Of a stretch of 64,000 bases of DNA, positions 19,173 through 32,900 are shown in pieces. The position numbers and the translations under genes were made by a program. Under the pieces are notes generated by a model. It was not told the origin of the DNA. It did not search any database and saw only the letters and a list, made by a program, of their open reading frames with translations. Location: the NCBI GenBank assembly GCA_963845755.1, contig CAWJTV010000011.1:800001-864000 (forward strand), read 5' to 3'. Every line of letters begins with the position of its first letter. Within the stretch, counting starts at the first letter, position 1. This DNA comes from an uncultured Planctomycetota bacterium (GTDB lineage: Bacteria > Planctomycetota > Planctomycetia > Isosphaerales > Isosphaeraceae).

Positions 19173-19389
19173 CTAGAGCGCTTCACATTTGGGTTGCGCA
19201 CACAAACGGCGTCACTTCGGCGGCCTGAGGGGCCGCGGGAGCCCAGCCCGGGGTGCAAACCCCGGGACTCGGTCAAACCGCGCCTCCAGGTGCACCCTGA
19301 AGGGGTGCCGGAGGGCTCTCCCGCGGCCCTATAGGCCGCCGGAATGTGGGTTTGCGTCGGACCCCGGGTTTCACCCGGGGCTGGGCTCC
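19173..19389 (+). repeat. REP/MITE-like palindromic element, left part (target of recombinase element copy 1)
   Basis: Starts CTAGAGCGC; nested hairpins CCCGGGG..CCCCGGG, GCACCC-TGAAG-GGGTGC, CCCGGG-TTTCA-CCCGGG; ends GGGCTGGGCTCC at the junction. Confidence 0.75.
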
Positions 19390-21398
19390 TATGACCCCAA
19401 CAGAGTGGCATATAGCCCGTTGATACCTGATACTGTCATCCCTCTGAGCCGCCTCAGAGGGCGTTGAACCCGACCCTGACGCCGGATTGCTGCTTGCATG
19501 GAGGTGATCGTCCTCGCGACGTCCTACCACGGAGAGCGGACATGACACGACGATCGGCCTTGGGACGGCACAGCCTCCGCATCCACCGGGAGTTCGTCCC
19601 CTCCCGCTGCCAGCTCCGCGCCCTGGCCTTGGCCTTCGAGCAGGCCCTCCCCATCATCCGGAGGCCGCTGACGACGCCGGCACGACCACAAATGTTCGTT
19701 GATTCTGATTTGAATTCGTTCACACAACCAGGCCGTTCGGGGGCCCTCCGATGACCGAACCCATCGACCGCCGCGCCGCCTTGTACGCCAGGGTCTCCAC
19801 CGAACAGCAGGCCCAAGAGGACACGATCGCCAGTCAACTCGATCTGTTGCGCCGGCGGATCCAGGCCGATGGCCTGACCGTCGCCCAGGAACTCCAATTC
19901 GCCGACGACGGTTATTCGGGCGAGACCTTCCGGCGCCCCGCCCTGGAACGGTTGCGCGACACGGCCGCCGCCGGGGCGATCGACCGGATCTACATCGAGT
20001 GTCCCGACCGATTGGCACGGGATTACCCGTATCAGATGGTCGTGGTCGACGAGCTGCGCCGCCAGGGCGTCGAGGTCGTCTTCCTCAATCACGACCTCGA
20101 TGAGAGCCCCGAGGGTTGACTGCTGTTGCAAGTCCAGGGGATCATCGCCGAATACGAGCGGGTCAAGGCCCGTGAGAAGTGTCGCCGCGGCCGGCTCTAC
20201 GCGGCGCGGTCGGGCCAGGTCAGCGTCCTGGGCGGCGCCTTACGGATACCATTACCACACCAAGCAGGAGGGAGGTGGCGCGGCCCGGTATGTCGTCCAG
20301 TTCGCCGAGGCCCAGGTGGTCCGAGAGATCTTCACCTGGGTGGGGATCGAAGGATGTTCGCTCAGTCAGGTGTGCCGACGATTGCGAGAACGCGGGCTCC
20401 TTACCCGCACGGGCAAGGTGCATTGGGATCGGGCCACGGTCCTGGGCATGCTGCGCAACCCGGCTTACATGGGGACAGCCCACTTCAACAAGGTCCATTG
20501 CGTCCCGGCCCGTCCCCGGTTGCGCCCGCGTCGGGGAGTCCCCGAGTTTCCACGGCGACACACCGCCAAAGCGGCGACGCCCCCCGAGGACCAGATCCCG
20601 ATCCCGGTGCCGGCGATCGTGGAGCCGGCCCTGTTCGAGGCCGTGCAGGAGCGGCTGGCGGAGCACCGCCGACATCCCGGCCAGGCGGCCCCCCGGCCGC
20701 GCCATCTGCTGGCGGGCTTGGTGGTGTGCCAGCGGTGTGGTTACGCGTATCGCGGTCGGGCCATGAAGAAGAAGGGAGGGAGTCGCTATGGCTATTACCG
20801 CTGTTATGGGGCGGAGGCCGAGTCCTTCGCCGGCCGGGCCCGGATCTGCGACAATCCGGCGATCCGGATCGAACGTCTGGACGAGGCGGTGTGGTCCGAT
20901 GTGCGCGGGTTGTTGCTGGAGCCGGAGCGGTTGGCTGAGGAATTCGAGCGGCGGTTGAGTCGGGCGAACCGAGGCGAGGGGACGACTCAGTCGAGTCGGA
21001 GCCTGGACAAGTTGATCGGTCAGGTCCGCCGCAGGCTGGCGCGGCTGGTGGAGATGTACGCCGACGGATACATCGAGAAGGAGAAATTCCAGAGAGATAT
21101 GGATATTTCTCGAACACGAATGTCAGAATTGGAGTTGGAGCGTCGGGCGATGGACCAGGAGGAACAGCAACGGGAGGAGTTACGGTTGGTGATGGGTCGG
21201 ATCGAGGAATTCGGGGCGCAGGTACGCGCTGGTTTGGATACCAGCGACGTGGCGACGCGTCGTCGGATCATTTGTGCACTGGTCAAGAAGGTCGAGATCG
21301 ATGCCGAGGCGGTTCATATTGTGTATCGTGTGAGCCCTCGCCCTTTTGCCCAAACGGCCCCGACAGACGGTAACATGCCACACTGTTGGGGCCGTTCC
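19387..21398 (+). mobile_element. ~2.0 kb large-serine-recombinase mobile element, copy 1
   Basis: Sub-terminal inverted repeats CCCCAACAGAGTGGCAT (19395-19411) and ATGCCACACTGTTGGGG (21375-21391); TCC core at both junctions; near-identical inverted copy at 27478..29490. Confidence 0.9.
19542..19754 (+). CDS. 70-aa accessory protein of the recombinase element
   Basis: GGAGAG RBS; MTRRSALG...FVPSRCQLRALALAFEQALP; ATGA overlap with the recombinase start; same ORF in copy 2. Confidence 0.6.
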   Translation: MTRRSALGRHSLRIHREFVPSRCQLRALALAFEQALPIIRRPLTTPARPQMFVDSDLNSFTQPGRSGALR

Positions 21399-21617
21399 CG
21401 CGGCCCTACAGGCCGCCGGAGATCGGCTCGCCTCGTGTCTGCAACTCGATCGTTACGCGCGCTAGAAAGCCCGACCTACTGGTCAATCAAGTTCTCCAGC
21501 GAAAACCCGACAGGTCGCTTCAAGATATTCTTGGCAAACATCGCATCAACGAGCAATTTAAGAGACCCAGCTTTTTCGACCGTTGTATATGAGCGGCTTT
21601 CAAAGGCGTCGTCGTAG
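19751..21617 (+). pseudogene. Large serine recombinase, copy 1 (CGA>TGA at 20117 and 2-bp deletion near 20235 relative to copy 2)
   Basis: YARVST catalytic Ser, DRLAR, PYGY, LRNPAYMG and zinc ribbon CQRCG...YYRC...C; lesions could be sequencing errors. Confidence 0.85.
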
Positions 21618-21654
21618 GGTGGGTCGAACGCCGCTTTGGGGCGTCAGGCCCACC
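21614..21654 (+). repeat. GTAG-type REP hairpin
   Basis: GTAGGGTGGGTC...GGCCCACC; a related reverse-oriented copy lies at 49665..49685. Confidence 0.55.
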
Positions 21655-21779
21655 GGACACCGCTCGCATCACGACAGGCTCGCCGCCATCGCGGGGCCGG
21701 AACGCTTCTGGTACGATCGCGTAGGATTGGAGCTAGCACTTCCGCAGGAGAACACCCGAGCGCTCCCGAGAGAATCGCC

Positions 21780-24700
21780 ATGAAACGACCACTTTCGGCC
21801 TCGCATCGATCCGGTCGATCCGCGTTATGGCCTCGAGGCGAGCGACTCGAAGACCGATCTCTGATGAGCGTCCAGTTCACCATCGACCCGCTCCAGGACG
21901 TCCATCCCATCTCGCGATACATCTACGGCGTCAACCAGCCCCTGGCCGGATATACCAATTTTACCTACCAGCGACTGGGAGGCGATTTGACGACGGACTG
22001 GAACTGGGAGAATGGCGACAGCAACGCCGGCCACGACTACTACTATCAGAATGAGAGCCTCAGCGATTTCACCGGCGGCACCGATGGGCCTGGCGGCGCG
22101 GCCGTCCCGATCATTCAGAGCGACCACGCCCAGAACGCCGCCACCTTGCTCACGGTTCCCATCAACGGCGACGTCGCCGCCAACACGGCCAATGACGATG
22201 TCCTGTACGACCCCGTCACCACGGTGACGACTTCCGTCAGCTCCACGGCCACAGTCATCCCGGTCGCCAGCGCCGCCGCCATCCCCACCACGCCCTACTA
22301 CATCGTCGATCGATGGCGAGGAAATGGAAGTCACCAGCGTCAACCTGACGCAGAATGACCTCACGGTGGTCCGAGGGATCAGTGGGAGCACGGCGACACC
22401 CCAGGCCAACGACCCGGTCTATCTTTCCCCGGATGTGAGGAACAGCGGGGCGAATTACTTGCAGACCCAGTTCGAGCAAGAGCTGCCGATGAAGCCCGGC
22501 GCCCCCGGCTCGTTCACGCTCAATCCCACCCCCGGCGGCCCGGTCTACGCGGACGAGTTCGTCAACTGGGTCAATACCATGTATCCCTACGGCGAGACCA
22601 GCACGACCACCCCTATCTGGTACGAGCTGGACAACGAGCCGGACCTCTGGAACTCCACGCACACCGAGATCCAACCGAACCCCGTGACCTACGCCGAGGT
22701 CGTCCAGGATAGCATCGACTACGCCGAGGCCATCAAGTCGGTCGAGCCGAACGCGCTGGTCTTCGGGCCATCCAGCTACGGCTGGGAAGGATTCACCTCG
22801 CTGCAAGACGCGCCGGACGCCGATGGCCGCAACTGGCTGGATGATTATCTCCAGCAGATGCAGCAAGCCTCGGTCACCGCCGGAGAGCGGTTACTCGACG
22901 TGCTCGATATTCACTTCTACACATCAACGCCCGACGACCCGGCCGACATCGTGCAGGCCCCGCGCTCGCTCTGGGACCCGACCTACATGGAAAATAGCTG
23001 GATCGCCCAGAGCATTCCCGGGCCGATCGAGCTACTACCGCGGTTGCAAGCCGCCATCAACCAGTACGACCCCGGCACGAAGCTGTCGATCAGCGAGTAC
23101 AACTACGGCGGCGGCGACGAGATCGCCGGCGCGATTGCCGAGGCCGACGCCCTGGGGATCTTCGGCGAGCAAGGACTGTACGCCGCCAGCGAGTGGCAGT
23201 TGAGTTCCAACGAATCCTACATCGCTGCCGCATTCAACATGTATCGGGACTTCGACGGCAACGATAGCACGTTCGGCGACACCTCCGTTTCCGCCCGCAC
23301 CAACGACGTCACCGACACCTCGATCTATGCGAGCGTCGACTCGTCCGACACCAACGTGATGACCCTGGTCGCCATCAACAAGAGCACCCAACCGCTGACG
23401 GCGACCTTGCAGCTCGATCACGTTCAGCCGGGCGCGACGGCCGCCATTTACCAATTGACCAGCGGCTCGACGACGCCGCAGTATGCCGGCACGGTCACGA
23501 TCACCAATCCGGCCGACTTCAGTGACCTGATGCCGGGCTCCAGCGTAACGACGATCCGCATCATCTCGCCGAGCGGCCTGGGCGACGCCCCGACCGTGGC
23601 CACGCCCGCCCAGGCTTCGCCTCCCACCGTCATGGGCGTCACCACCGACCTGAGCGTCGTGGGGGCCGATGCCGGCGGGGCGTCAAACTTGACTTACACC
23701 TGGAGCACCACCACGGCGCCGGCGCCGGTCACCTTCTCGGTCAACGACACCAACGCCGCCCAGGATACCGTCGCCACGTTCCATGCGGTTGGCACCTATT
23801 CCTTCCTGGTGACGATCGCCAATCCCGGCGGCTATTTCGCGACCAGCAGCGTGAATGTCACGGTCGATCCCACGCTGAGCCACATCACGCTGACCCCTTC
23901 CGATCCGACGGCGACCGAGCAGGGAGACCAGCAATTCACAGCGACGGGCACCGACCAGTTCGGCAACGCACTGAGTGCCCCACCGAGTTATTCCTGGTCG
24001 GCCGGCGCCGGCTCCATCTCCAGCGCCGGCGTATTCGTGGCCCCGGCCGCGCCGGGGAATGTCACGATCACCGCGTCCGCCGACGGCGTGGAGGGCAGCA
24101 CCACGGATTCCGTGGTCAACCCGACGACGATCACCGTCAGCGCCCCGACCGACCTCGCCCTGCGCAACGCCGTGGCCCAGGCCAACACCGACGCCGCCAA
24201 CGGCGACGCGGCCACGATCGTCTTCGCCCCCAGCCTGGCCCGCGACATCATCGCGCTGAGCTCCGGGCCGCTGGACCTGACCGCCGGCACCGGCGCCATC
24301 CGGATCGAGGGCGGCGGCCTGATCACCCTCAGCGGCGACGGCGACACCCAGGTCTTCCAGATCGACAGCGGCGCCCAGGTCACTCTGGACGGGCTGACGA
24401 TCGAGGGCGGCAGCGCCGGCAGCAGCGGCGGCGGCATCGACAACTCTGGCACCCTGACCATCACGAACTCCACGCTCGCCGATAACACCGCCGGCACTTC
24501 AGGCGGCGGCATCGACAACACGGCAAGTCTTACGGTGACCAACGTGACCTTCACGGGCAACTCCGCTCCGACCGGCGGCGGCATCAACAATGCCGGCACC
24601 GCGATGATTGCGGATGCCACGTTCAACGGCAACGATGCGACCGGTACCAGCGGCACCGGCGGAGCGGTCGCCAGCACGGGCACCCTGACGCTGACGAACT

Positions 24701-26586
24701 CCACCCTCGCCGACAACTCCTCATCGAATGCCGCCGGCGGCATCGCCAATACCGGCCAGATGACCGTGACGGATTCCACCATCGACGACAACACCGGTTC
24801 CTACATCGCGGGCGGCATCAACAATGTCGGCACCATGTCCGTAACGAACTGCACCCTCGCCGGGAATGATGCCTACCTGGGCGGCGGCATCTACAACGGC
24901 AACTATTATGGCGCCTCCGGCAACTTGACACTGACGAATGACACGATCACGAGCAACTTCGCCGCCTATGGCGCCGGCGGTGGCATCTACATGGCGAACG
25001 GCTCTTACAGTACAACCGGCGGTAGCACGCTGACCCTGTACAACACCCTGATCGCCGGTAACTACGCCTCGGGCAACAGCGGCGATCCCCTCAGCAATCC
25101 GGTCCTCCCCTTCGGCCCGGACATCCAGGTCCATAGCGGCACCGTCACCGGCTCGAACAACCTGATCGGAGACGGCCAGGGCCTGACGGGCATCAGCAAC
25201 GGCGATGCCAACCACAATCAGGTCGGCACACCCGCGGCCCCGATCGATCCGCTCCTGGCCGCGCCGATCGAGAACGTCGATTTCACGCTGGCCCTCACCG
25301 CTCCGGTCGTCGCGTTCAATATCGCCCAGATCCCGCTGATGAACAACGGCGGGCCGACCGAGACGATCGCGCTGCTCCCCGGCAGCCCGGCCATCGGCGC
25401 CGGCACGGCGATCACCGGCGTCACCACCGACCAGCGCGGGCTCCCGCTCGACTCGCCCCCCGACATCGGGGCCTACCAGGTCCAATCCGCCTCGTCCTCG
25501 CTCGCCATCGCTTCGATCGGACCCATCGCGCCCGCCACGCGCAACACGCCCGTCACCGCGATCGATGTGACTCTCAGCGAGCCCGCCGGTCCCGGCGGAT
25601 TCACCGCCGGCGCCCTCATCCTGACCGACGACGGCGGCCCGAACCTGATCACCGGCGCGGTCGCCGTCACCCTCGTCTCCGGCTCGACCTATCAGATCAG
25701 CGGCCTTTCCAGCCTCACCGGCGCCGAGGGCTCCTACACGCTGACGGTCCACGCGGCCGACATCCCGGACTCATCAGGCAACCTGGGGTCTGGCTCGGCG
25801 TCGACCTCGTGGCTGATGGACACCACGCCGCCCACCAGCACGGTCAACGCCCTGCCGTCCCGGACGACCGCGATGGCCTTCACCGTCTCGGTGACCGCGT
25901 CCGACCCGGCCGGCGCGAACGGCAGCCCGCCCTCCGGCGTCGCCTCGATCGCCATCGACGTCTCGACCAATGGTGGACCGTTTATCCGATTTGCCACGGT
26001 GACGCCGGCCCAATTCTCGGCGACATTCACGGGCCAGGCCGGCAACACCTATGCCTTCTACAGCATCGCGACCGACAGGGCCGGCAACGTCCAGCCGACT
26101 CCCACCACCGCCCAGGCGACCACGACCCTGATCGGCACGACCTCGCCCACCCCCACACCAACACCGACTCCCACCCCCACGCCAACCCAGACGGTGATCA
26201 TCGGCGAGCAACCGCTTTTCCAGCGCAGGCTCAAGAAAGGCAAGCCCGTCGGCAAGGCGGTCCTATCCGGCTTCACGCTCGACTTCAGCGTCCCGCTCAA
26301 CTCCACGGCCGCTATGAACGCCGCGAACTATCAGCTCGACACCATCACCACCAAGCGGGTCAAGAAGGCAACTCATCAAATTCTACATACGATCACAAAT
26401 TTAAGAATATCATATCTTGTGACCAGCGACACGGTCGAGATCGCGTTCAGAGCCAAGGAGACGTTCCCGACAGGCGGTCAACTCACGGTCCTCGGCGGCC
26501 TGACGACGGCCTCGGGCGGCACGCTGAGCGGCAACGCGGTGTTCGCGATCTCCAAGGGCGGGAAGAGCCTCGGCCCATCGTCGTGA
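21780..26586 (+). CDS. Secreted multidomain glycoside hydrolase family 44 protein (GH44, Ig/PKD-like, beta-helix GGGI repeats, choice-of-anchor-Q-like, PT linker, basic C-terminal domain); frameshift near 22310
   Basis: ERLEDRSLMS N-terminal motif; RLGG...WNWENGDSNAG, LDNEPDLW (acid/base Glu) and ISEYNYGGG (nucleophile); NNGGPTETIALLPGSPAI...DQRG...DIGAY. Confidence 0.85.
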
Positions 26587-26680
26587 GTCCTCGATCCCGA
26601 CTCCCGACGGCGGGGATACCGATGCGCGAATCCTGGCGAGTTGGTGGCGGTGATGTTAGAGTAGAAGCCTGGAGGGTCCC

Positions 26681-26947
26681 ATGAACATCACGCCCGAGAT
26701 CCGGCAGGCGATCGAACGATCCGGAGGCGAGCCACTCCGGCTGGAAGATCCCTTGAGCCGGGAGTCGTACATCCTCCTGAAGGCTTCCGCTTTCGAAAGG
26801 ATCCAGCAGCTCCTCGCTCCGCTCATCAGCAAACAGGATGACTGGCAATGGGCGGACGCCTATCCCGCAGCCGATGAGGCGTTCCGCGAGGGTTGGGAAG
26901 CACCCGGTATGTCGGATTACGACGAGTACGAGAAACACCGGCCGTGA
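26681..26947 (+). CDS. Putative antitoxin
   Basis: 88 aa with acidic C-terminus (GWEAPGMSDYDEY); stop overlaps the toxin GTG start (GTGA). Confidence 0.65.
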   Translation: MNITPEIRQAIERSGGEPLRLEDPLSRESYILLKASAFERIQQLLAPLISKQDDWQWADAYPAADEAFREGWEAPGMSDYDEYEKHRP

Positions 26948-27294
26948 ACCGTGGCGATGTCGTGCTGGCGTTCTACCCGTTTGCCTCCGGATCCGGCGGC
27001 AAGAGACGCCCAGCTCTCGTCGTGCAAAACGATGCCGACAATGCGCGGATGGGGGCCACGATTCTGGCCCAGATCACGACGAACCTGGCCCGAGCGGGCG
27101 AGCCAACCCACCTGCTGATCGAGGCGTCCACGATCGAGGGCCAGCAATCCGGTCTGCTGCACGATTCACTCATATCGTGCAATAACCTGGTCACGGTCGA
27201 ACTGACGCGCATTCACAAGGTGATCGGTCGCCTTCCGGCAACGACGATGCAGAAGATCGACGATTGCCTGAAGGCCGTACTCGGTCTGCCGTGA
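26944..27294 (+). CDS. PemK/MazF family toxin
   Basis: RGDVVL..YPF....GKRRPALVVQND, ITTN, SGL..DS and ID.CLK..LGL. Confidence 0.9.
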   Translation: MNRGDVVLAFYPFASGSGGKRRPALVVQNDADNARMGATILAQITTNLARAGEPTHLLIEASTIEGQQSGLLHDSLISCNNLVTVELTRIHKVIGRLPATTMQKIDDCLKAVLGLP

Positions 27295-27453
27295 CTCGGG
27301 GATGGCCAGAAGCGCTCCGTTGGCCTTCATCTGGCTTCACCAAGCGGGCAACCTCTCGAAGTCAGGGCTGCCCCTGGGCCGGCAAGCCCAGTCATCCTCA
27401 TCCCAGGTCGTTAGAGCGCGTAACGATTGCGTTGCATACACGAGGCAAGCCGA

Positions 27454-29126
27454 TCACCGGCGGCCTATAGGGCCGCGGGAACGGCCCCAACAGTGTGGCA
27501 TGTTACCGTCTGTCGGGGCCGTTTGGGCAAAAGGGCGAGGGCTCACACGATACACAATATGAACCGCCTCGGCATCGATCTCGACCTTCTTGACCAGTGC
27601 ACAAATGATCCGACGACGCGTCGCCACGTCGCTGGTATCCAAACCGGCGCGTACCTGCGCCCGAATTCCTCGATCCGACCCATCACCAACCGTAACTCCT
27701 CCCGTTGCTGTTCCTCCTGGTCCATCGCCCGACGCTCCAACTCCAATTCTGACATTCGTGTTCGAGAAATATCCATATCTCTCTGGAATTTCTCCTTCTC
27801 GATGTATCCGTCGGCGTACATCTCCACCAGCCGCGCCAGCCTGCGGCGGACCTGACCGATCAACTTGTCCAGGCTCCGACTCGACTGAGTCGTCCCCTCG
27901 CCTCGGTTCGCCCGACTCAACCGCCGCTCGAATTCCTCAGCCAACCGCTCCGGCTCCAGCAACAACCCGCGCACATCGGACCACACCGCCTCGTCCAGAC
28001 GTTCGATCCGGATCGCCGGATTGTCGCAGATCCGGGCCCGGCCGGCGAAGGACTCGGCCTCCGCCCCATAACAGCGGTAATAGCCATAGCGACTCCCTCC
28101 CTTCTTCTTCATGGCCCGACCGCGATACGCGTAACCACACCGCTGGCACACCACCAAGCCCGCCAGCAGATGGCGCGGCCGGGGGGCCGCCTGGCCGGGA
28201 TGTCGGCGGTGCTCCGCCAGCCGCTCCTGCACGGCCTCGAACAGGGCCGGCTCCACGATCGCCGGGACCGGGATCGGGATCTGGTCCTCGGGGGGCGTCG
28301 CCGCTTTGGCGGTGTGTCGCCGTGGAAACTCGGGGACTCCCCGACGCGGGCGCAACCGGGGACGGGCCGGGACGCAATGGACCTTGTTGAAGTGGGCTGT
28401 CCCCATGTAAGCCGGGTTGCGCAGCATGCCCAGGACCGTGGCCCGATCCCAATGCGCCTTGCCCGTGCGGGTAAGGAGCCCGCGTTCTCGCAATCGTCGG
28501 CACACCTGACTGAGCGAACATCCTTCGATCCCCACCCAGGTGAAGATCTCTCGGACCACCTGGGCCTCGGCGAACTGGACGACATACCGGGCCGCGCCAC
28601 CTCCCTCCTGCTTGGTGTGGTAATGGTATCCGTAAGGCGCACCGCCCAGGACGCTGACCTGGCCCGACCGCGCCGCGTAGAGCCGGCCGCGGCGACACTT
28701 CTCACGGGCCTTGACCCGCTCGTATTCGGCGATGATCCCCTGGACTTGCAACAGCAGTCGACCCTCGGGGCTCTCATCGAGGTCGTGATTGAGGAAGACG
28801 ACCTCGACGCCCTGGCGGCGCAGCTCGTCGACCACGACCATCTGATACGGGTAATCCCGTGCCAATCGGTCGGGACACTCGATGTAGATCCGGTCGATCG
28901 CCCCGGCGGCGGCCGTGTCGCGCAACCGTTCCAGGGCGGGGCGCCGGAAGGTCTCGCCCGAATAACCGTCGTCGGCGAATTGGAGTTCCTGGGCGACGGT
29001 CAGGCCATCGGCCTGGTTCCGCCGGCGCAACAGATCGAGTTGACTGGCGATCGTGTCCTCTTGGGCCTGCTGTTCGGTGGAGACCCTGGCGTACAAGGCG
29101 GCGCGGCGGTCGATGGGTTCGGTCAT
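27454..29126 (-). CDS. Large serine recombinase, copy 2 (one -1 frameshift in a G-run near 27660)
   Basis: Same motifs as copy 1; open for about 490 codons; C-terminus in ORF 27454..27642. Confidence 0.9.
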
Positions 29127-29490
29127 CGGAGGGCCCCCGAACGGCCTGGTTGTGTGAACGAATTCAAATCAGAATCAACGAACATTTGTGGTCGTGCCGG
29201 CGTCGTCAGCGGCCTCCGGATGATGGGGAGGGCCTGCTCGAAGGCCAAGGCCAGGGCGCGGAGCTGGCAGCGGGAGGGGACGAACTCCCGGTGGATGCGG
29301 AGGCTGTGCCGTCCCAAGGCCGATCGTCGTGTCATGTCCGCTCTCCGTGGTAGGACGTCGCGAGGACGATCACCTCCATGCAAGCAGCAATCCGGCGTCA
29401 GGGTCGGGTTCAACGCCCTCTGAGGCGGCTCAGAGGGATGACAGTATCAGGTATCAACGGGCTATATGCCACTCTGTTGGGGTCATAGGA
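27478..29490 (-). mobile_element. ~2.0 kb large-serine-recombinase mobile element, copy 2 (inverted)
   Basis: Reverse complement of 19387..21398 with only a handful of differences; same end repeats and TCC core. Confidence 0.9.
29123..29335 (-). CDS. 70-aa accessory protein of the recombinase element, copy 2
   Basis: Same translation as 19542..19754. Confidence 0.6.
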   Translation of the reverse strand: MTRRSALGRHSLRIHREFVPSRCQLRALALAFEQALPIIRRPLTTPARPQMFVDSDLNSFTQPGRSGALR

Positions 29491-29664
29491 GCCCAGCCCC
29501 GGGTGAAACCCGGGGTCTCCGGCGCATCCCCCAGATCTCCGGCGGCCTGTAGGGCCGCAGGAGTCACCTCCCGGCACCCCTACAGGGTGCACGAGCATGG
29601 CGCCGTCCGACCGAGTTCCCGGGGTTTCACCACCGGGCTGGGCTCCGGCGGCCCTTCGGGCCGA
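29488..29664 (-). repeat. REP/MITE-like palindromic element (target of copy 2)
   Basis: Same hairpin series as 19222..19389 in reverse orientation, ending GGGCTGGGCTCC at the junction. Confidence 0.75.
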
Positions 29665-29974: not shown

Positions 29975-32900
29975 ATGTCCAAGTTCTTCATCTCCTACCG
30001 CCGCGACGACAGCGCGGCCGATGCCGGGCGGCTCCATGAGAAGCTGACGGACCACTTCGGGCGCGGCAGCATCTTCATGGACATCGATGCCATGAGCCTG
30101 GGCCGCGATTTCCGCAAGCAGCTCGCCGACGCCGTCAACCAGTGCGATGTCTTGCTGGCGGTCATCGGCGACCACTGGCTGGATGCCCGCGATCCCAAGA
30201 AGGGCACTCGGCGTCTGGATGACCCGGAGGATTGGGTGCGGATCGAGATCGCGGCGGCCCTGGCACGGGACATCCCCGTGGTGCCCTTGCTCGTGGGACA
30301 CCAGACCGCGATGCCGCGCACGGCCGATTTGCCCGACGATTTGAAGGAGCTGGCCTATCGCCACGGCACCACCGTCCGTTCCGGGGAGGACTTCCATGGC
30401 CAGGTCAACCGGCTGATCAAGGGCCTTGAGGGTCTCGGCAAGGCGGGCCGCATCGCCGACGAAGACCCGAAGATGGCCCTGCGGCGTGCCTACGAGATGC
30501 TGGAGCTGATGGTCCGTGAGGTTTATGAACGGCGGTTCCACGAGCCGCCCGGGACCCGTTCCCTGGAGAACCTCGTCCAGCGCCTGGACCAGGCGGGTTG
30601 CCTTCCGGCCCGGTTCGATCTCGCCGCGATGATCCAGAAGCTCGGCGAGACGGGGACCGCCCAACGGGACGAGGTGTTCACCCCGGGCGACGTCCACCAG
30701 GCGCTGGCGCAACTGACGGAGGTCCTGAAGTGGTACATGGAAGGGGAGCCGCCGGAATCGCTCGGCCCGCATCCCGGACCGGAGCCTCCGCGGCCGACCG
30801 GACCTGAGGCGCGGATCGCCGTCGTACCCAAGGGACTGCGGTCGTTCGACGCCGACGACAGTAGTTTCTTCTTGCAACTCCTGCCCGGCCCGCGCGACAC
30901 GGACGACCTGCCCGAGAGCCTCCGCTTCTGGAAGCACCGCATCGAGGCTCGGGACGATCCGGCGTTCACTGTGGGGGTGATCTACGGCCCTAGCGGTTGT
31001 GGTAAGTCCTCGCTGATGAAGGCCGGGCTGCTGCCGAGATTGGCCCGGCGGATCATCCCCGTCAACATCGAAGCGACGCTCGAGGAGACCGAGATCAAGC
31101 TGCTCAACACCTTGAGGAGACGCGTCCCCGGGCTCCCGGGCGATCGCGACTTGACCCGGTCCCTCGCCGCGCTCAGGGCGGGCGAGGGCCTGCGATCCGA
31201 CCAGAAAGTCCTCATCGTCCTCGATCAGTTCGAGCAGTGGCTGCACGCCCATCGGAGCGATCGCGACACAAAGCTGACCCGGGCGCTGCGGCAGTGCGAC
31301 GGCGATCGCGTCCAGGCCATCGTCATGGTACGGGATGACTTCTGGGTCGCCCTGAGCCGGTTCATGGGCGAGCTGCGCATCGAGCTCGTTCAGGGCCGGA
31401 ACGCCGCCCTGATCGACCTGTTCGACCCGATCCACGCCGCGAACGGTGCTGTCGGAATTCGGCCGGGCGTACGGCCGCCTGCCCCGCGGCAACGAGGCTC
31501 TATCGGGCGACCAGGAGAGCTTTCTCACCCAGGCCATCGGGGGCCTGGCACCGGATGGGCGGGTCATCCCCGTCCGGCTGGCCCTGTTCGCCGAGATGGT
31601 CAAGGGCCGGCCGTGGTCGCCGGCGACGCTCAAGGATGTGGGCGGCACCCAGGGGATCGGTGTCGCCTTCCTCGAAGAGACGTTCAAATCCACCGCACTG
31701 AGAAGTCACCAGAGGGCCGCCCTGGTCGTGCTCAAGGCTTTACTCCCCGAGAGCGGCACCGCCATCAAGGGCCACATGCGGTCGCACGATGACCTGGCCA
31801 TGGCGTCGGGATACGCCGCGCGCCCGAGCGACCTGGACAACCTGCTGCGGACCCTCGATCGCGACATGCGACTGATCACGCCCACCGATCCCGAAGGGTC
31901 GGAATCCGAGGGCATGGAGGGTCTCGCTCGATCGGGCCGGTTCTACCAACTGACGCATGACTATCTCGTCCCCTCGATCCGCGACTGGTTGACCCGCAAG
32001 CAGCGCGAGACCCGGCGCGGGCGTGCCGGACTCCGGCTGTCCGACCGCGCGGCGCTCTGGAACGCCAAGCCCGAGAACCGGCACCTGCCCTCGGTGCTCG
32101 AGTGGGCGAACATCCGGCTGCTGACGAGGAAGCCGGACTGGACCGAAGCCCAGCGAGCCATGATGAAGCGGGCCGGCCGGGTGCATGGCCTGAGAGGGCT
32201 GGGCCTGGCCATCGCCGCCGTGATCGTCGCCGCCGTGGTTCTCGATGTCCGCCGGCGCATCGACGAAGACAAGCAGGCCACCATCGCCGACAACCTGGTC
32301 CAGCGCCTGCTCGTCGCCGAGACGACCCAGGTCCCGGACCTCGTCAGGGCGCTGGATCGCTACCGCCGCTGGGCAGACCCGGCATTGAAGCGCGTCGTCG
32401 CAGACCCCGGCACGATCCCCGGGCGAAACTCCACGCCAGCCTGGCGCTGCTGCCCGTCGATCCGAGCCAGGCCGCATACGTGGAGGAGCGGCTCCCCGAC
32501 GCCGGGCCAAAGGACTTGCCGGTCCTCCGAACCGCGCTCTGGGATTTCCGCGACCGCGTGGCCCCGAAGCTCTGGCAGGATCTGGATTCGGCCCGGCCCG
32601 ACGACTCGCAAGTCCGGCCCGTCGCCGGCGCATTGGCCGCTTACGATCCCCAGAGTCCCCGCTGGGCAGACCTCGGCGACAAGGTGGCCGGGGCCCTCGT
32701 CACGGTCAACTTCATTTATCTCCAGGACTGGCTGGATGACCTGCGCAGGTCCATGCGACGCTGAATCCGCACCTGTCACGGATCTTCAGGGACAAGACCC
32801 GAACCGCCGCCGTGCACACCCAGGCGACGAACATCCTGGCCGATTACGCCAAGGACGATCCCTCCCTCCTGGCCAGCCTCATCATGGACGCCGACCCGGA

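Follow-up and report, generated by a model that had tools for sequence, protein, structure and literature searches.

The window analysed here, a 64,000-nucleotide stretch of DNA from an uncultured Planctomycetota bacterium, corresponds to positions 800001-864000 of contig C11 in a genome assembly (G000) of 14.27 Mb, 49 contigs and 64.4% G+C. It holds two copies of a small mobile element, each inserted into a palindromic repeat. Copy 1 occupies 19390..21395 on the plus strand, where a base-by-base reading gives 2006 bp without the shared core, from T19390 to T21395. Sequence comparison places copy 2 at 27481..29487 on the minus strand (2007 bp), inverted with respect to copy 1. Complementary arms of 981, 879 and 251 nt at 97-100% identity connect the two, and alignment inside the element shows that they differ at five substituted positions and by two gaps, one of 2 bp after 20234 and one of 1 bp at 21213. 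Beyond the element ends, the similarity falls at once to the level of the repeat family. An earlier note on this DNA had described two near-identical elements of about 2.0 kb, and both are present.

Each copy begins with a gene for a 70-residue protein, at 19542..19754 on the plus strand in copy 1 (ATG at 19542) and at 29123..29335 on the minus strand in copy 2, where the open reading frame (ORF) and the alignment locate it. Its stop overlaps the start of the second gene in an ATGA at 19751-19754. This second gene, which encodes a large serine recombinase (LSR), extends over 19751..21617 on the plus strand in copy 1, broken by a TGA at 20117-20119 and by the 2-bp gap after 20234; it leaves the element at 21395 and finds its stop at 21615-21617, in the flank. 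In copy 2, a 527-aa open frame (P0001) spans 27543..29126 on the minus strand, with the C-terminal ~35 residues out of frame after the 1-bp gap opposite 21213. ORFs and Pfam domains bear out the claim that the element contains these two genes and nothing more. A promoter and terminator scan of the element returned nothing above shuffled expectation.

The domain content of the recombinase is that of an LSR: a catalytic domain with the serine nucleophile (PF00239, Resolvase, E 4.1e-30, residues 9-156), then a recombinase domain (PF07508, Recombinase, E 2.5e-21, residues 187-305) and a zinc beta-ribbon (PF13408, E 2.3e-13, residues 320-386). The serine motif Y12-A13-R14-V15-S16 is invariant among 10 relatives. 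Otherwise, the domain scan gave a sub-threshold HTH_27 alone, and the protein scores far under the cut-offs of the NCBIfam equivalogs CcrB, XisF and IS607.

Both ends of copy 1 can be read to the base. The left junction is GGGCTGGGC-TCC-TATGACCCCAACAG, with TCC at 19387..19389 (plus strand, attL side), and the right junction is CTGTTGGGGCCGT-TCC-CGCGGCCC, with TCC at 21396..21398 (plus strand, attR side); the empty site has a single TCC. These strings stand in the sequence exactly as claimed. Just inside the junctions lie two inverted arms on the plus strand: the left arm CCCCAACAGAGTGGCAT (19395..19411), which is coding in the joined form, and the right arm ATGCCACACTGTTGGGG (21375..21391), which lies inside the recombinase frame and encodes MPHCWG, part of an MPxCWGR peptide kept at this place in close relatives. 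Joining the ends produces an inverted-repeat site around the shared TCC with the arms 12 bp apart. The 17-bp arms reported by the earlier note are present, and they match at 16 of the 17 positions rather than at all of them. By its layout, the joined site is a putative LSR donor site, and the target bears only limited likeness to it.

The target repeat and its insertions

The interrupted sequence is a unit of two hairpins. Its left half at copy 1 (19360..19386, plus strand) consists of a hairpin CCCCGGG..CCCGGGG followed by CTGGGC, and its right half (21399..21420, plus strand) consists of a hairpin GCGGCC..GGCCGC. The occupied unit has an empty partner on the minus strand at 19196..19275, the two forming a '-/+' pair. 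Within this partner, the exact 20-mer GGGCTGGGCTCCCGCGGCCC at 19231-19250 supplies the uninterrupted, inverted copy of the restored site that had been proposed. Copy 2, in turn, occupies a unit whose pair partner is an empty core with one mismatch at 29635..29654 (plus strand). Folded in silico as single-stranded DNA, an empty unit gives two predicted hairpins with the TCC in a 5-nt linker between them (-22.5 kcal/mol, z -2.46).

A profile search of the genome with nhmmer found 93 units, including 65 of nearly full length. Uninterrupted 20-mer cores number five when the match is exact, 24 with at most one mismatch, 47 with at most two and 82 with at most three. Neighbouring units mostly follow each other as '-' then '+' with about 80 bp between them, and the partner unit is empty in every pair that holds an element. 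An open frame of at least 250 codons spans 28 of the 93 units compared with 791 of 1000 random places, which puts most units outside genes. Short units with GC-rich palindromes, high copy number and a mostly extragenic location are the traits of repetitive extragenic palindromes (REPs) and bacterial interspersed mosaic elements. Yet none of the 10 matches to PF01797, the Y1 (IS200-like) transposase, has a unit within 3 kb, and 'REP-like' is thus a description rather than a statement of membership, which would call for a link to a REP-associated tyrosine transposase. A sister genome (G001) has at least six instances of the repeat, 80-86% identical; the query used for the element found no match there to the lineage of the window element. 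Synteny between the two genomes stops short of the repeat, and the comparison yields no before/after pair for an orthologous empty site.

Whole-genome blastn extends the count beyond the window. The two copies seen by the earlier note are all that the window contains, whereas the genome holds six full copies, 99.5-100% identical (two on C11 and one each on C18, C42, C13 and C20), together with a solo right end. When these copies were collected and their flanks aligned, all six proved to sit at one position of the repeat and in one orientation. The shared left flank reads ..GGGGTTTCACCCC.GGCTGGGC and then the core, while the shared right flank is the core followed by.GCGGCCC.T.AGGCCGC. In pairwise blast of 1.5 kb per side, the flanks resemble one another (75-90% identity) only in the nearest ~220 bp of the left side and ~70 bp of the right side, and the DNA beyond is unique to each copy. 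The six copies are therefore separate insertions into different members of the repeat and not duplicated segments. Chance is excluded, because six copies with unique outer flanks share a position and an orientation within a repeat whose units cover about 93 x 75 bp of the 14.27-Mb genome.

Past the junctions, the window copies go on matching for about 30 bp on the left side and 70 bp on the right, as they would if the half-repeats belonged to an element inserted elsewhere and the 'target' were an illusion. This reading is already contradicted and deserves very little credence: the hairpin halves are 75-90% alike against at least 99.5% for the element, with a sharp break at the TCC; dozens of uninterrupted units exist, also in an element-free genome; and each pair retains its empty partner.

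The solo right end (C9:40974-41014, 41 bp) lies between two right half-repeats, a normal one and, on the inner side, an inverted one; it may be the scar of an aberrant recombination with a neighbouring unit.

The two window copies are inverted, lie 6.1 kb apart and enclose genes, an arrangement that would also suit a host inversion switch. The enclosed segment encodes a 1420-aa GH44 glycoside hydrolase with a PKD-like domain (22324-26586) and a PemK/MazF-like toxin (26893-27294, E 1.3e-21); an 88-aa ORF that lies ahead of the toxin gene and overlaps it may encode the antitoxin. A switch is nevertheless a far-fetched explanation, given that four more copies stand alone on other contigs and that each window copy occupies a repeat pair of its own with the usual layout; the lack of any contig with the inverted arrangement points the same way, though weakly.

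The joined ends and the proposed cycle

No stop codon closes the recombinase frame within the element. In integrated copies the frame runs on into flanking DNA, and the C-terminal tails vary accordingly. When the ends are joined, the frame stays open for a further 25-62 codons in the window element, in a relative with another hairpin target (L015) and in all four examined members that insert into reverse-transcriptase (RT) genes. The joints followed in this way were the window's own, 21375-21395 joined to 19390-19470, and those of L021, L017, L041, L024 and L015. The window frame reads on for 26 codons and produces the tail SYDPNRVAYSPLIPDTVIPLSRLRGR; its joint was built without the 3-nt core, which leaves the frame intact and makes the true tail one Ser longer. 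For L013 and L114, where the joint is a guess, the frame closes after 12 and 8 codons.

Across nine distinct left ends, the joint-encoded tail is conserved as protein, including one in-frame insertion of two residues. This conservation across the joint means that the full-length enzyme is probably made from the circle. Judged from its sequence, the recombinase gene looks complete only in that form. RT-targeting members share the tail motif ..SRxRLRPxYGxGFxGAPL, and both inverted arms are coding sequence in the circle.

Taken together, the evidence favours an insertion-sequence-like transposon with an LSR as its transposase, moving through a circle into the repeat, a reading to which a probability of roughly 80% is given. 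By the chemistry presumed for it, the recombinase would join the element ends (attL x attR) and release a circle whose joint, ...ATGCCACACTGTTGGGGCCGT-TCC-TATGACCCCAACAGAGTGGCAT..., would serve as the donor site. The circle would then recombine conservatively with a target of ~40-50 bp, available about a hundred times in the genome. The crossover would fall within the TCC, in the linker between the two hairpins of the REP-like repeat (..GGGGTTTCACCCCGGGCTGGGC-TCC-CGCGGCCCTTCAGGCCGC..), and the orientation would be fixed because the core region is asymmetric. Full-length enzyme made from the circle would favour re-integration. The earlier note had proposed an IS-like integrase that uses a multicopy intergenic repeat, and this gains support from the independent insertions, the empty units, the LSR as sole enzyme and the relatives found at other multicopy targets. 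Such a repeat may offer the 'safe-harbour' benefit it suggested, and the element may still be active in G000.

The small protein would act in this cycle as a conserved, co-translated accessory. Its gene is intact in all six copies. An alignment of 27 element sequences from many phyla gives a family core of L.V..FEPSRL....L..AY....P..RR, with R22, A31 and P37 invariant. Searches found no Pfam match and no PDB sequence match; the predicted fold (mean pLDDT 71) has a single helix at residues 22-35, and a predicted complex with recombinase residues 1-492 scored 0.16 against a mark of 0.32. In phage and island serine integrases, directionality depends on a small accessory protein, and a directionality or excision factor is a possible guess here.

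The target might instead be chosen by RNA. Two reports describe a guide RNA in IS110/IS1111 elements (PMC11187229, PMC11208158), and a transcript of the window element's 360-nt leader could in principle play that part. Sub-lineages with different targets exist within one protein family, and the region 5' of the recombinase gene is sizeable, both of which would suit a guide. However, a protein-coding gene takes up most of this leader, and its amino-acid sequence is conserved across phyla; the first ~75 nt of the leader are the conserved recombinase tail in the joined form. The recombinase also has full LSR DNA-binding modules, and lineages with different targets are about 50% identical in protein, which leaves ample room for protein-encoded specificity. 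An RNA guide is accordingly a highly improbable alternative.

Several observations weigh against the transposon reading. The recombinase frame is interrupted in all six assembled copies, each differently (nonsense, +1, -1 or -2), and the element family may be dead in G000. The TCC core that the earlier note gave for the window copies is present on both sides in four of the six copies; in C42 the left junction has TTC, and in C13 the right junction is one C short, so the core differs between the two junctions of these two copies. The bases shared by the junctions occupy positions 5-7 of the 12-bp spacer in the window element; among RT-type insertions with known empty sites they occupy 5-6 or 7-8 in several and 6-7 in another. 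A single 2-bp crossover register for the whole family was considered and rejected, since no register fits all junctions without mismatch, and the lack of a common one is unexpected for a serine recombinase. Large serine recombinases exchange strands conservatively at an overlap of 2 bp that is the same in the two partner sites. Conservative cut-and-paste alone also leaves the rise to six copies unexplained.

Public data add further points on this side. The only public data found to contain parts of the stretch are soil-metagenome contigs, with no RNA set listed; those examined come from four runs of one study and are of low depth. The circular junction was looked for in these contigs and did not appear, which at such depth is weak evidence, nor did an excised (empty) form of the occupied site. 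An apparent 'go-back' joint in one run (X1) turned out to be the flank of another genomic copy, with tandem repeat units.

The broken frames can also be read as the mark of a fossil, an element that spread by the mechanism described above and whose copies now all carry a dead recombinase gene, immobile unless helped in trans. Every copy has at least one frame defect, and a 1-bp gap near the C-terminus is common to three of the six. Nonetheless, the 99.5-100% identity of the copies speaks for very recent spread, the small gene is intact throughout, and the gaps fall in GC-rich runs, as is typical of consensus errors in repeats. Moreover, the public short contigs are unbroken at all three window defects: they have C at 20117 (3/3 covering runs), two extra bases at 20234 (3/3 runs) and no gap at 21213 (4/4 contigs). 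On this comparison of sequences, the window defects may be private mutations or consensus errors. A fossil is therefore the less likely account, although it is the one alternative here that keeps some weight.

Known systems share parts of the mobile-element reading preferred here. The clostridial transposons Tn4451/Tn4453 (TnpX) and Tn5397 (TndX) resemble the window element in using an LSR as transposase, in their proposed excision circle and in a short shared core. Transposons of the Tn4451/Tn5397 type have a GA dinucleotide at both ends and in the target, and Tn4451 combines its GA core with a circle-joint promoter. GA also marks the junctions of a second element family in G000, whereas the window element has TCC instead. 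These clostridial transposons are at least 6 kb long, carry cargo and enter many loosely similar sites; the window element, in contrast, is 2.0 kb long, cargo-free and bound to one defined multicopy repeat. Similarity to TnpX is confined to the catalytic domain (E 1.2e-5).

The serine integrases phiC31, Bxb1, A118, TP901-1 and SPbeta SprA have the same three domains, the same attP x attB logic, short att sites and a small central overlap. Unlike the window element, which has about 100 sites and carries no cargo, phage and island integrases use a unique chromosomal site and bring tens of kb with them. The window recombinase is distant from the solved LSRs, with matches to the TP901-1 catalytic domain (E 2e-12), SprA/YokA (9e-7) and the A118 C-terminal domain (1e-3).

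Insertion sequences that target REPs, such as IS1397 and ISKpn1 of the IS3 family, follow the same strategy as the window element, as do IS110/IS1111 members: all use a fixed position in an intergenic, palindromic, multicopy repeat. They rely on DDE or DEDD transposases, whereas the window element uses a serine recombinase. IS607 differs in another way. Its TnpA is small, with an N-terminal helix-turn-helix and a C-terminal catalytic domain, and the element has no inverted-repeat ends and almost no target specificity; the window element has the LSR domain order, inverted arms and strict specificity. Its recombinase reaches 31.2 bits against the IS607 model NF033518, whose cut-off is 110, and only through the catalytic part. 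One paper describes IS607 as a serine-recombinase insertion sequence that moves through a circle with a dinucleotide overlap, and it counts 'some transposases' among the large serine recombinases (PMC4058570). Another study calls some LSR clusters 'multi-targeting', possibly via sequences present at several places, in a clade marked by DUF4368 (PMC10083194); a Pfam scan found no DUF4368 in the window recombinase.

Relatives at other multicopy targets

The recombinase belongs to an abundant family. Among 8000 candidates scored, 5323 homologues of P0001 reached E<=1e-30. The best 120 are 50-100% identical and lie nearly all on contigs of ~2-3 kb, as is characteristic of a repeat that the assembly has collapsed. 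A scan that took a single genome from each species yielded 620 candidate stretches with 589 relatives among them, from Planctomycetota, Acidobacteriota, Pseudomonadota, Chloroflexota, Cyanobacteria and other phyla. Where copies share a unit within one genome, that unit measures 2017-2293 bp. Public annotation lists the family genes as 'recombinase family protein' or 'site-specific DNA recombinase'.

A census of flanks kept 80 loci, 51 of which could be evaluated because each retains its two inverted ends and 60 nt or more of flank. PQG and SPxLxN motifs flank 29 of these, one motif alone flanks six, and 16 have neither. Over both locus sets, the insertions with both motifs point one way in 18 cases and the other way in 12. 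These members interrupt RT genes of group II introns between PQGG and SPLLAN, in both orientations.

G000 itself contains such members. The whole-genome blastn search that found the six window-type copies also found six copies of the second family, ~2013 bp long with perfect 24-bp terminal inverted repeats and about 66% nucleotide identity to the window element (C3:156925-158943, and on C47, C22, C6, C24 and C16). They interrupt a group II intron protein (RVT_N, RVT_1, GIIM, HNH) within its RVT_1 domain, in both orientations. Their site lies between QGG and I(V)SP, with GA common to both junctions, and several empty copies of the same RT gene are present, for example at C41:23440-23540.

Transposase genes are a third multicopy target class. 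In a metagenome scan, IS5-like DDE_Tnp_1 genes hold 16 of the 19 evaluable loci, with the left flank ending at profile position 163 and the right flank beginning at 162. The elements of this subgroup (L105-L130, for example L114:592-2634) are about 2053 bp long and lie between ..LPKRWIV and VERTxAWLNRxRRL.

Closer relatives resemble the window element in their targets. L015, whose recombinase is 73% identical, occupies a hairpin repeat of another sequence with TCT common to its junctions, and L013/L014, two copies at 62% identity, occupy a third hairpin repeat; across these closest relatives the junctions have TC(T) in common. The right end of L102 (78% identical, left end missing) abuts a GC hairpin; it is the one locus of 42 in the metagenome scan that falls into the window's clade. 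In a FastTree phylogeny of 68 recombinases, whose labels come from reading the flanks and which leaves 32 rows unlabelled, the four repeat-targeting rows form one clade with support 100 and a stem of 0.48. RT-targeting rows stand on both sides of its midpoint root, a root that is not established.

RT-targeting members match the window element in protein family, size, two-gene layout, inverted arms and a frame that continues across the joint. They differ in entering either orientation and in having a palindromic joint, whereas the window clade enters a non-coding hairpin repeat in one orientation and has an asymmetric joint. L045, from the same metagenome-assembled genome as L015, has the clade and ends of the RT type, yet its flanks are GC-rich hairpins without an RT gene; off-family targets therefore occur in the RT-type clade as well.

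Against this background, the window element is apparently a target-switched variant of an LSR transposon within an abundant family that, as far as could be found, has no name. A wider proposal, held slightly more probable than its opposite, makes it part of a large superfamily of minimal serine-recombinase transposons that has so far gone undescribed. In this view, several shifts of att specificity would have aimed its members at conserved sequences of other multicopy elements, namely a group II intron RT motif, the RW(I/V)VERT motif of IS5-like transposases and hairpin repeats. Their recombinase gene would be completed only across the circle joint, leaving the excised form as the sole source of full enzyme. 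A full-text literature search whose scope excluded ISfinder and subscription journals yielded no published minimal 2-kb LSR insertion sequence; targeting of RT or DDE genes by such elements, or a lineage aimed at repeats, was likewise not described there.

LSRs are prized in genome engineering, although few attP/attB pairs are known, most of them through hard inference. Here, both att sites are short and directly readable, and the natural target of ~50 bp is present in about a hundred copies. Sister lineages appear as the same scaffold re-aimed at other sequences, so that a specificity code of the DNA-binding domains could be tested by comparison. If the superfamily proposal is true, nature supplies a whole series of attP/attB pairs that are compact and self-documenting and whose specificity can evolve, and the superfamily's members would be 'parasites of parasites' that shape the intron, IS and repeat load of bacterial genomes. 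With the window element, the group of insertion sequences that home to REP-like repeats would gain a member that uses a serine recombinase, and the element's relatives would add a very abundant, unnamed IS-like family.

Individual relatives and neighbouring genes provide some further observations. A member with 44% identity is present on TOL-type plasmids (L101, Pseudomonas putida plasmid pWW53, 76042-83489; also NC_014124.1); it adjoins benzoate dioxygenase genes and is annotated only as 'recombinase family protein' fragments. In Microvirga tunisiensis (L016/L053), a 1910-bp contig consisting essentially of a single element has a coverage of 1701 compared with 78 for a 26.6-kb contig of this genome, which hints at about twenty element copies. 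The flanks of L009 (G022:C372) are perfect reverse complements over 34 bp and both encode SPLLANIYLH; the contig is short, and the locus probably reflects a chimeric assembly of the hairpin type. Within the window, 26681-27294, which includes the MazF-like gene, is 92% identical to a place in the sister genome, and a gene just past copy 2 (29975-31792) combines a TIR_2 domain with an nSTAND1 NTPase, a defence-like architecture.

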